Virus record (IMG/VR): IMGVR_UViG_3300020419_000859
From: a virus
Strand: one strand, 5' to 3'
Length of the DNA stretch: 64,000 bases
Below the pieces are notes generated by a model that was given only the letters and a program-made list of their open reading frames with translations, had not been told where the DNA came from and searched no databases. The position numbers were made by a program, and so were the translations under genes. Of the stretch, positions 5,905 to 21,779 are shown piece after piece (positions within the stretch are counted from its first letter, which is position 1; each line of letters starts with the position of its first letter).

Positions 5905-5979
5905 GCGGGCTTAGCTCAGTGGTAGAGCGACTCGTTGCCAACGAGTAGGTCGTGGGTTCGAATCTCATAGCCCGCTCCA
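5905..5979 (+). tRNA. tRNA-Gly(GCC)
   Basis: Canonical cloverleaf: GCGGGCT/AGCCCGC acceptor, ACTCG-TTGCCAA-CGAGT anticodon arm, GTTCGAAT T-loop, U73, encoded CCA. Confidence 0.96.
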
Positions 5980-15274: not shown

Positions 15275-15478
15275 ATGGGTATAAAAGTAGACGTTAGAAA
15301 TGGTAATGTAGAACAAGCCTTACGTGTTTTAAAACGTAAATATCTTAAAGATGGCTTTTTAAAAACGTACAAAGAAAAAATGTACTATGAAAAACCGTCT
15401 GAAAGAAAAAGACGTAAACAAAAGGAAATGATTATCAATTCTAAAAAAGCTAAGAGATTACGAGAAAAATTTTTATAG
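15275..15478 (+). CDS. rpsU: Ribosomal protein bS21
   Basis: VDVRNGNVEQALRVLKRK...YYEKPSERKRRK. Confidence 0.93.
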   Translation: MGIKVDVRNGNVEQALRVLKRKYLKDGFLKTYKEKMYYEKPSERKRRKQKEMIINSKKAKRLREKFL

Positions 15479-15487
15479 AATTTATGA

Positions 15488-15696
15488 ATTTAACGCCATA
15501 CATTGATATATATATTATGGTCAAGGCTGCTCGTAAGTCCTATGACAGCGTTAAATGAGGCATATAGGGTGCCTCAAACAGTGGATTGTTTAAGCATTTG
15601 CGCTTAGTTTCGCACCACTTTAAAAAAACAAACTAAAGCTGCGGCTCGGTTTTGGTAGTTTTCTATAGCCTTGTATTCAGAAAACTACCACTTGAC
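15488..15696 (+). ncRNA. Candidate structured non-coding RNA with several stems and pseudoknots
   Basis: ORF-free region with six or more stems, including a 12-bp perfect stem and two loop pairings (see findings); family not recognised. Confidence 0.55.
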
Positions 15697-15723
15697 ATAT
15701 GAGAAATCATACTTATATAAATA
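15691..15723 (+). promoter_or_regulatory. Composite hsp20 promoter: RpoH-like plus T4 late TATAAATA
   Basis: CTTG-N17-CTTATAT (alphaproteobacterial sigma32-type) overlapping TATAAATA at 15716-15723. Confidence 0.6.
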
Positions 15724-15728
15724 ACTAT

Positions 15729-15790
15729 GACAATGCCATAATGGGTTGTCTTTTAAAAAAATAACTTTGCTTAACAAAGGAGGTTACATG
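15729..15790 (+). promoter_or_regulatory. ROSE-like RNA thermometer in the hsp20 5' UTR
   Basis: TAACTTT(G)CTT-AACA-AAGGAGGTTA hairpin sequesters the SD, with UUGCU and a bulged G; upstream GACAA...TTGTC hairpin. Confidence 0.7.
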
Positions 15791-16231
15791 ACCAATAAAG
15801 CATATTCTATTTTTAATCAATTAAGACCAATAACCGTAGGTTACGATGATGTATTTGATCGTTTTGAATCTATGTTTGACGAGTTTGGTGGTACACCAAG
15901 ACTAGCAACTATGTCAAATTTTCCGTTTTACAATATAGTAAAACAGGATAAAAACAAGTACGATATACAAATTGCACTTGCAGGTTATAATAAAAAAGAC
16001 ATTGAGGTTACCTTGGAAGAGGGTATACTTACAGTGAAATCTTTAACTAAAGACAAGGAAAATAAAGACATGATACATAAAGGTATCACTAAAAAGTATT
16101 TTACCAAATCTTTTACAGTGGCTGAAGATGTTGAAATCAAAGGCGCTGAGTTAAAAGATGGTCTTTTAACTATTAGTATGGAACGTATTATTCCAGAACA
16201 TATGAAAGCAAGAACTATTAATATTAAATAG
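15788..16231 (+). CDS. hsp20: Small heat shock protein Hsp20 (IbpA-like)
   Basis: FPFYNIVK, IALAGY, IHKGI, GAELKDGLLTI; AAGGAGG SD fixes the start at ATG 15788. Confidence 0.95.
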   Translation: MTNKAYSIFNQLRPITVGYDDVFDRFESMFDEFGGTPRLATMSNFPFYNIVKQDKNKYDIQIALAGYNKKDIEVTLEEGILTVKSLTKDKENKDMIHKGITKKYFTKSFTVAEDVEIKGAELKDGLLTISMERIIPEHMKARTINIK

Positions 16232-19418: not shown

Positions 19419-19494
19419 GCCCTTTTAGCTCAGCTGGTAGAGCAACTGATTTGTAATCAGTAGGTCGTCTGTTCGACTCGGACAAAGGGCACCA
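19419..19494 (+). tRNA. tRNA-Thr(TGT)
   Basis: GCCCTTT/AAAGGGC acceptor, ACTGA-TTTGTAA-TCAGT anticodon arm, GTTCGACT T-loop, encoded CCA. Confidence 0.96.
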
Positions 19495-19895: not shown

Positions 19896-20335
19896 ATGAA
19901 GAAATTAAGTGGTCACAGGAAGACATGTTAGAGGTCACTCTAACTCAACCAGATGATTTTTTAAAAGTTAGAGAGACACTTACCAGAATTGGTGTCGCAA
20001 GTAGGAAAGACAAGACATTATTTCAATCTTGTCATATATTACACAAGCAAGGTAAATATTACATAGTACATTTTAAAGAGTTATTTGCTTTAGACGGAAA
20101 GAAAGCAACTCTTATTAATAACGATATACAACGTAGAAATACGATTGCAGTATTATTACAAGACTGGAAATTAATAGATATTGTCAACAAAGATTCGGCA
20201 ATGGAAAATAAGGCACCATTATCACAAATTAAAGTATTACCATTTAAAGAGAAAAAAGAGTGGATATTATCCGCTAAATATAACATAGGGAAAAAGGTAG
20301 TAAAAGAGACTGATAATGCAAATACCGAAGTTTAG
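19892..20335 (+). CDS. regA: Translational repressor RegA
   Basis: DDFLKVRETLTRIGVASRK...QSCHILHKQGKYYIVHFKELFALDG. Confidence 0.97.
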   Translation: MNEEIKWSQEDMLEVTLTQPDDFLKVRETLTRIGVASRKDKTLFQSCHILHKQGKYYIVHFKELFALDGKKATLINNDIQRRNTIAVLLQDWKLIDIVNKDSAMENKAPLSQIKVLPFKEKKEWILSAKYNIGKKVVKETDNANTEV

Positions 20336-21779
20336 AGATTACATAACAGAGAATACAAAGTCACGTAAAAATAAACCATTTACGGTGGCTATACTTACTA
20401 TAAACGATTCAGATAAACCTAATAAAGATTCTACTGTTGAACTTATAGAAAAAGCTTGTATAAAAAAGAAGATTAAATGTGTTATTGTAAACACTAAAAC
20501 GACAATCATAACAGGTAAAGACGAAGATAAAAAGACACTTACGGTCTATAATTACGATGGTAAGAACAGCGAACATACGTTTGTTGGTAAAGATACTCTT
20601 TGTATAACAAGAGGTGGTGCAGTAGAAGATGAGGCTGGCCTTTCTTTAATATCTGCCTTTCAAAATTCAGAATCATTTATGTTAAACACAAGAGCTTCTA
20701 TGCTTACTTGTGATAACAAATTAACATCAGCTTTATTATTTGAGAAGTTTGGTATACCTACACCGAGAACTGCTTTTATATCTAACGAAAAGAATATAAG
20801 AACAGGTTTAGATTTAATTGGTGGTAAATTTCCTGTAATATTAAAAACATTAACAGGTACACAAGGTGTTGGTGTAGTTAAGATTGAAAGTTATGAAGGC
20901 CTGGTTGCAACAGTACAGGCGATGTGGAAATTAGGTGCTGAACTACTAATACAAGAATATATGGAAACAAAGTTTGACGTAAGAACTTTTGTATTAGATA
21001 ACAAAATTATTGCAAGTACAAAAAGAGTACATAGCTCATATGACTTTAGATCAAATACACATAGAGGCGCTGAGGCAATGCCTTATATTTTAAGTGATGA
21101 AGAACACGAATTAGTTTTAAAAGCTTCAAGAGCTTCAAAAGCATATATGGTAGGAGTTGACCATATAGTAAACAATAAAAAACCATACATTTTAGAAATC
21201 AATGGTAGTCCAGGATCAGGTGCTGATTATCAAGGTTACCAATACAAAGATTATTATTCTGATCCAGAACCATCTGGTAGAATAGACGGCGAAAAAATGA
21301 TGGAATATCTGGTAGATTATATATCAGATAGAACTAACTGGGACAGACAATCACTAATAGAAAGTGGTTGGTTAGAAACGGTAGAATTAGAAGACGGTTT
21401 AAAAGTTAGGGCAAAATTTGATACGGGTAACGGAGCGGCTGCCTGTGCTTTACATGCCGATGAGATTTTAAGTAAAGAAAAAATTGTTAAATGGAAATAC
21501 GATGGTAAAACATATAGTAAACCAAGACATGGTATAAGTAAAATTTTTAGAGCAAATGCAGAGGGTGAAGAGCCATCTGAAACAAGACCAACGATTCTTA
21601 TGGATATTACCTTTAATGGTTTTACATATAAAGAGGTAGAAGTTGGTTTAGATAGTAGACCAAGAGCACATTCCGATCTACTAGTAAATAGAGAATTAAT
21701 GCGTCAAATGAATATTGGTGTCAACCCTAATAGAACGTTTGTATTAAGTAAAAGATTAAGACCGGTTGAAAAAGAATAA
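20316..21779 (+). CDS. RimK-like ATP-grasp ligase fused to a RimB-like aspartic protease domain
   Basis: CDNKL, GIPTPRT, GTQGVGV, IQEY, FRSNTHRG, LEINGSPG; C-terminal AKFDTGNG...LLVNR. Confidence 0.85.
   Translation: MQIPKFRDYITENTKSRKNKPFTVAILTINDSDKPNKDSTVELIEKACIKKKIKCVIVNTKTTIITGKDEDKKTLTVYNYDGKNSEHTFVGKDTLCITRGGAVEDEAGLSLISAFQNSESFMLNTRASMLTCDNKLTSALLFEKFGIPTPRTAFISNEKNIRTGLDLIGGKFPVILKTLTGTQGVGVVKIESYEGLVATVQAMWKLGAELLIQEYMETKFDVRTFVLDNKIIASTKRVHSSYDFRSNTHRGAEAMPYILSDEEHELVLKASRASKAYMVGVDHIVNNKKPYILEINGSPGSGADYQGYQYKDYYSDPEPSGRIDGEKMMEYLVDYISDRTNWDRQSLIESGWLETVELEDGLKVRAKFDTGNGAAACALHADEILSKEKIVKWKYDGKTYSKPRHGISKIFRANAEGEEPSETRPTILMDITFNGFTYKEVEVGLDSRPRAHSDLLVNRELMRQMNIGVNPNRTFVLSKRLRPVEKE

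Follow-up and report, generated by a model that had tools for sequence, protein, structure and literature searches.

A structured element between rpsU and hsp20

The window analyzed here is a stretch of 64,000 nucleotides (nt) of virus DNA (IMG/VR record IMGVR_UViG_3300020419_000859) from a T4-like marine myophage, whose nearest cultured relatives by DNA are the Pelagibacter phages HTVC008M and Mosig. Between rpsU (15275-15478), which encodes phage bS21, and hsp20 (ATG at 15788), followed by the genes for peroxiredoxin, sliding clamp, clamp loaders and regA (hsp20-peroxiredoxin-gp45-gp44/62-regA), lies a 209-nt stretch (15488-15696) that folds at -60 kcal/mol, with z = -3.6 against dinucleotide shuffles. 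The initial annotation had described this stretch as dense in pairings, free of open reading frames (ORFs) and an unrecognized pseudoknotted phage RNA, and this description is borne out: no ORF of at least 40 amino acids overlaps it, the eight listed complementarities are all exact reverse complements, no Rfam family (manA and tmRNA among the models) matches the element, and related phages show strong covariation. Three features had been missed, namely the pseudoknot formed by GGCT at 15643-46, a short AGC/GCU hairpin (15593-95/15602-04) and a late-promoter-like box at 15507-14. The element in the window consists of the following parts.

15488..15556, + strand: helix P1, 15488-96 with 15548-56; double changes in 8/10 pairs
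15507..15514, + strand: late-promoter-like box TATATATA, one mismatch against the T4 late promoter TATAAATA
15520..15546, + strand: hairpin A, universal 5' module, with a variable stem, AGG/CCU, bulged U15538 and C15527-G15537; covariation
15556..15576, + strand: hairpin H, variable, optional cassette; -12 kcal/mol
15580..15642, + strand: M1, optional mobile cassette, with outer helix 15580-84/15615-19, short hairpin 15593-95/15602-04, pseudoknot helix 15606-10/15630-34 and conserved tail AAGCUGC; covariation
15643..15690, + strand: PK-B, near-universal 3' H-type pseudoknot, S1 15643-46/15667-70 and S2 15653-64/15679-90; covariation

A modular RNA family supported by covariation

Homologous loci were gathered through hsp20 and bS21 and through DNA patterns, which yielded about 200 distinct copies. 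Counts are based on patterns, without a covariance model; they give minimum values for the size and diversity of the family and are skewed towards the patterns. A sample of 86 hits, of which four are chance matches outside the locus, was not chosen for the promoter (the promoter-unconstrained sample). We call the run from hairpin A to the last PK-B a train; 160 trains were scored, and PK-B was found in 148 of them.

The copies follow a common order: a TATA-type box, hairpin A, none to several cassettes, PK-B, a second promoter (in most copies) and the hsp20 leader. Trains measure 60-384 nt (median 108) across the family and about 170 nt in the window copy, whose modules are hairpin A, hairpin H, M1 and PK-B. 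Covariation is present in P1, hairpin A, M1 and both PK-B stems. One-sided changes in the P1 and PK-B alignments are all G-U, and a further comparison gave 46 G-U against 19 A-C; this asymmetry fixes the + strand and argues for RNA rather than DNA repeats. Comparative sequence analysis establishes the fold, the modular order, the + strand and the independence from both neighboring genes. The element represents a real, uncatalogued family of modular pseudoknotted RNAs with strong structural support and a proposed function.

Hairpin A stands first in every train. Its outer stem is paired in 68-100% of the family over four positions, and at positions 2-4 pairing reaches 79, 90 and 68%, against 43-47% with swapped partners. 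The 9-nt loop (15528-36, consensus NRYUCRUAA) is nearly invariant while the stems vary, and contains the U-turn word YUNR. The pair that closes it, C15527-G15537, occurs as C-G or U-A in several separate backgrounds; a search with the U-A pattern returned 18 matches and a C-A mismatch control none, in a U-A set that was picked in part by the search pattern and included two cases known beforehand. A C-GUAA-G tetraloop was dropped in favor of the 9-nt loop after this test of the closing pair. In HTVC008M the hairpin is doubled in tandem, both copies sharing the loop core, as would be expected if the loop is a binding site.

P1 starts a few bases past the rpsU stop codon and encloses the internal promoter box, so that it can form only in transcripts that read through from rpsU. 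Its double changes were reached by none of 500 shuffles. P1 is found in 94% of the copies adjacent to rpsU, compared with 17-19% of the others, which is near background.

M1 is represented by 33 distinct copies with 16 different outer-helix sequences, and its pairing score is 12 against 9.5 with swapped partners. The short hairpin changes from AGC/GCU to GGC/GCC (A-U to G-C), two types that may reflect one evolutionary event, and the pseudoknot core AGTT/AACT stays paired. M1 occurs in 26 of 148 trains and is followed by PK-B in 31 of its 33 copies; in Mosig it lies about 230 nt farther downstream of hairpin A, with other cassettes between. An extended alternative helix in M1 was rejected for lack of covariation, with one pair broken in 10 of 23 copies.

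PK-B closes the train. The loop of its 12-bp stem pairs with the GGCT just upstream (15643-46) and not with hairpin A; this local S1 pairing scores 10.8 against 9.1 for the swapped control. S1 and S2 each occur in dozens of sequence forms. In the one subtype that can be aligned, 97.8% of cells are paired and five pairs show double changes, with both stems represented.

These comparisons sort the pairings of the initial annotation. Those at 15488-96/15548-56 and 15520-46, AGTGG/CCACT, the AGTT/AACT core and the 12-bp stem covary and are retained. The hairpin at 15556-76 (hairpin H) is swapped as a whole for unrelated hairpins in close relatives and is absent from others. TGCG/CGCA, which occurs in only 11 of 33 M1 modules, is not supported. 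A switch between mutually exclusive partners of 15520-28 had also been proposed; the pairings that it needs, AGCCTTG/CAAGGCT and GTCAAG/CTTGAC, show no excess over swapped partners (8.44 observed vs 8.59 swapped and 5.69 vs 5.90), and CTTGAC (15691-96) is the -35 box with which the hsp20 promoter starts.

Other modules occur in relatives of the window phage. One cassette, absent from the window, begins with CAUUGGYCUU, ends with GGGUGAGRCCUACC and contains a long-range pairing that covaries; it is part of 33 of 148 trains and has no Rfam match (loci L053, L096, L118, L123, L127, L138, L023; about 1660-1730). A further cassette after hairpin A, a hairpin or pseudoknot with a conserved GUCGC tail, is found in 49 of 148 trains (for example L015, L016, L050, L052 and L053). 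Divergent phages (L007, L016, L027, L060, L062, L130 and L180) share an insertion at one and the same site, immediately behind PK-B: a hairpin of about 55-60 nt, formed by an inverted repeat and identical among them, which looks like a mobile miniature element. In L027, L034 and L238 the first codons of a gene inserted after PK-B contain a pseudoknot-like pairing with two 8-bp stems.

Promoters, neighboring genes and distribution

Of the 86 promoter-unconstrained hits, 82 have a counterpart of the box at 15507-14 immediately 5' of hairpin A; the remaining four are the chance matches elsewhere. At this position many homologues, HTVC008M and Mosig included, read ATAAATA. Since TATAAATA also stands upstream of several ORFs in the window, the late promoter appears to be in use in this phage, and we infer that the box is the RNA's own promoter. 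A sigma-70 scan gave no excess above chance. In the assembled contigs of four RNA runs, whose low, patchy cover is blind to ends and level, the element is not enriched over the flanking genes. The features that flank the element are listed here.

15275..15478, + strand: rpsU, phage bS21, context gene (PHROG 21469, E 1e-12)
15691..15723, + strand: second promoter, for hsp20, CTTGACA...CTTATAT overlapping TATAAATA, RpoH-like plus late, from motif positions
15724..15787, + strand: hsp20 leader, a separate element and candidate RNA thermometer, with a hairpin at 15729-50 and a ROSE-like UUGCU (15767-71) facing the Shine-Dalgarno (SD) sequence (15778-83)
15788..16231, + strand: hsp20, context gene (PHROG 432, E 3e-41)

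Of the 160 trains, 125 have the second promoter box. The hsp20 leader pattern recurs in 160 of 194 homologues; the leader has no match in Rfam, and RNAfold favors a different local hairpin there.

Among the promoter-unconstrained hits, hsp20 lies within 560 nt of the element in 67 of 81. The connection to the bS21 gene, with which the initial annotation had the RNA co-transcribed, is looser than proposed: 82 of the 86 hits have the promoter-like box, and the 74 hits that extend far enough upstream divide into 32 with rpsU adjacent, 29 with rpsU about 400 nt off and 13 without rpsU inside 900 nt. The unit remains intact in the 29 cases with insertions on the rpsU side. It is likewise intact where ORFs are inserted on the hsp20 side (Mosig, L027, L029 and L137), and hsp20 then keeps its own promoter and leader. 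The element is thus not strictly an untranslated region (UTR) of either gene; by this comparison it has the behavior of a separate gene whose locus is fixed.

A search of 185,579 host genomes relied on exact patterns, which a diverged homologue could escape. The M1 pattern found nothing, and the hairpin A pattern gave two matches, both in phage-like contigs with hsp20. Two GTDB metagenome-assembled genomes (L275, Porticoccaceae; L276, Flavobacteriales) include contigs with the element and a phage-type hsp20, and these contigs are probably mis-binned phage DNA.

Comparison with known RNAs

At the gathering cut-off, Rfam 15 finds only two tRNAs in the window, and no match falls on the element in 18 homologous loci. 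The nearest RNAs in kind are manA and wcaG (RF01745, RF01761), orphan structured RNAs of marine T4-like phages, of which manA is about 190 nt long and is reported to stand upstream of ibpA-type genes among others (PMC2864571). The element differs from both in being modular and without a model match. Identity with manA, an RNA with a multi-junction fold, was rejected, as RF01745 matches neither the window nor any of three records that bear the element, and in Mosig the true manA (64 bits, L273 1501-1708) lies about 98 kb from the element and is unrelated in sequence and fold. HTVC008M (L274) has a sub-threshold manA copy of 26 bits.

Several T4-like cyanophages (Sf-CH3, S-H9-2, Syn1, RN05-S and S-8S55) have a small, uncatalogued late-promoter RNA upstream of hsp20, which has no match in Rfam. 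It shares with our element the late promoter, a 5' hairpin whose loop contains UUCGU, the second promoter and the hsp20 leader, but it has a classical terminator, no PK-B and a different stem. We regard it as an analogue, homology not being established. In this cyanophage RNA (L272 2005-2095, L436-L439 and L441) a covarying hairpin, a conserved GUCGGAA-ACCC and the terminator recur, upstream of hsp20 or elsewhere.

Two further identities were discarded. ARAGORN and Rfam find no transfer-messenger RNA (tmRNA) of the one- or two-piece kind, and the CCA that comes behind the 3' stem takes part in pairing and varies; Ocean-VI, a marine motif outside Rfam, is unrelated in sequence. The core words of the element do not occur in the first 200 of the 438 supplements of PMC2864571, and it is not described in the searched passages of the pelagimyophage, Melnitz and phage bS21 papers; a prior unnamed listing in a survey of 10,000 candidates (PMC10690425) is possible.

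Proposed function and alternatives

The element has its own promoter-like box together with a covarying fold that is independent of the neighboring genes. The account that we favor, while stopping short of calling it probable, is a free-standing, phage-specific, late structured non-coding RNA, whose 5' loop would dock a partner and whose 3' pseudoknot would protect the end. The RNA would be made late in infection from the promoter at 15507-14, starting near 15520; a second form would be the rpsU mRNA, extended at its 3' end by the RNA with P1 as a cap. PK-B would mark the 3' end and shield it from exonucleases, in place of a classical terminator. The U-turn-type loop of hairpin A, whose letters YUCR-UAA recur in the anticodon loops of tRNA-Thr(CGU) and initiator tRNA, would dock one translation-related partner, either a protein or the UUAUG context of a start codon. 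As a decoy or guide, the RNA may then adjust translation in trans during late infection. Cassettes such as M1 may add binding surfaces and be swapped between phages by recombination.

Some observations weigh against this account. The second promoter is missing from 35 of 160 trains, and there the RNA is physically the 5' leader of hsp20. Only 36 of 148 trains have a U-tract behind their last PK-B, so PK-B is not generally a terminator; the window copy has no U-tract with which S2 could serve as an intrinsic one. The anticodon likeness of the loop comes without a canonical anticodon stem, and a match of the loop to the start context of the peroxiredoxin gene shows no covariation. Complementarity of the loop to UUAUG contexts was found at 11 of 60 starts, compared with 99 of 1434 ATGs, a difference that AT-rich spacers may explain and that comes without covariation.

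A less probable but serious alternative is a cis-acting leader of the hsp20-peroxiredoxin-gp45-gp44/62-regA operon, working as an antiterminator, an attenuator or a stabilizer of the mRNA. HK022 put and Bacillus EAR are antitermination RNAs that likewise lie close to where a long operon begins, EAR with a pseudoknot, and in the antiterminator version hairpin A would load a factor onto RNA polymerase. The position of hairpin A, always right after the promoter box and where a long run of + strand genes begins, fits such a role, as do the proximity of hsp20 and the minimal versions of the element, which are plain 5' UTRs of hsp20. Yet hsp20 usually has a promoter and leader of its own, which it keeps upon gene insertion, about a quarter of the trains end in a U-tract, and many optional cassettes would not be needed for antitermination. 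The element also differs from put and EAR in lacking a sequence or model match to them and in the second promoter downstream.

We consider unlikely a reading in which the RNA is a recombining train of cassettes and its constant 5' loop a mimic of the initiator-tRNA anticodon loop. The loop would then serve in trans as decoy or guide, either in translation initiation or to counter an anticodon-targeting defense, and the interchangeable pseudoknot modules (one of them SAM-II-like) would add binding or sensing.

Quite unlikely, too, is a 3'-UTR element of rpsU that stabilizes the mRNA or serves as a feedback site for bS21, in the manner of the L17 downstream element (RF01708; PMC2864571) or the bS21 site of OLE RNA. 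Between them, these parallels share with the element a position 3' of a ribosomal-protein gene and a G-C-rich AGG/CCU helix, and the invariant AGG/CCU helix of hairpin A resembles part of the bS21-bound SD/anti-SD mimic in OLE RNA (PMC12054373). The restriction of P1 to copies adjacent to rpsU points in the same direction. Against this, hairpin A and PK-B persist where rpsU lies some 400 nt off or is lacking from the nearest 900 nt, the 3-bp likeness is weak, and P1 may be a clade trait. Five contigs that carry the element without a nearby rpsU, all of them fragments, have no PF01165 match. The element further differs from the L17 element and the OLE site in its own promoter box and its pseudoknots, and binding of bS21 to it is hypothetical.

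It is doubtful that M1 is a variant aptamer of the SAM-II superfamily that forms, with PK-B, a riboswitch controlling read-through into hsp20. M1 is an H-type pseudoknot with a U-rich L1 and an A-rich L3, and it shares with SAM-II, SAM-II long loop and SAM-V (RF00521, RF01726) the GUGG/CCAC helix, the A-rich linker and the CUAAAG tail, to which an AUUU segment can be added. The best sub-threshold Rfam similarity of the element is to SAM-II long loop (15575-646), at 19.4 bits and far under the cut-off of 44; the SAM-II model gives 10.8 bits against 36. The usual placement of PK-B after M1 would suit the proposal, and these phages use glutamine riboswitches (PMC9004378). The SAM-II pocket has a conserved UU-G(C) strand and an unpaired U before the A-run (PMC11508383), and it is not kept: M1 of the window has an A in place of the unpaired U, which is present in 17 of 33 copies, and the UUGC strand is lost. 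Moreover, only this one optional module, absent from most trains, is similar; no alternative fold was found to be conserved; and the genes downstream are hsp20 or variable ORFs without a link to S-adenosylmethionine, not genes of sulfur or methionine pathways.

Glutamine riboswitches (RF01739) lie just 3' of hsp20 in relatives (L006 2997-3048, L012 1734-1785 and L060 1510-1560) and are absent from the window.

The ribozyme-like character proposed in the initial annotation finds no support. Processing of a polycistronic message by a pistol- or HDV-like self-cleaving ribozyme would accord with the compact pseudoknots, the conserved single-stranded residues and a few short words presumably shared with pistol, but it is very improbable: the element fits no ribozyme consensus, no Rfam model (pistol, HDV-like or twister) matches at the gathering cut-off or with E values of up to 10, and the P2/P3 parts of pistol and the strand order of HDV are absent. 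Least credible of all is a feature of the DNA (operator, origin or cruciforms) or a short peptide gene of 13 codons from 15518, suggested by the inverted repeats around the AT-rich promoter box and by the ATG at 15518, since the strand-specific G-U changes and pseudoknot covariation point to RNA, no skew inflection marks an origin, and the frame is not conserved (in-frame TAG in 70 of 202 copies, open ATG in only 25 of 202).

Implications and other cargo

The window phage is related to viruses of SAR11, which is among the most abundant ocean bacteria. A published survey found, with the tool used there, no regulatory RNAs in this phage group (PMC7029224). The family described here is widespread, unusually modular and, in the searches run, specific to phages. 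It lies beside the gene for phage bS21. The presence of the element in two cultured phages, HTVC008M and Mosig, makes its function directly testable; the annotations of both omit it, and in Mosig short hypothetical ORFs are called over it.

The window carries further translation-related cargo: tRNA-Gly(GCC) at 5905-5979, tRNA-Thr(UGU) at 19419-19494 and, after regA, a RimK-like gene (20316-21779, PHROG 2599).
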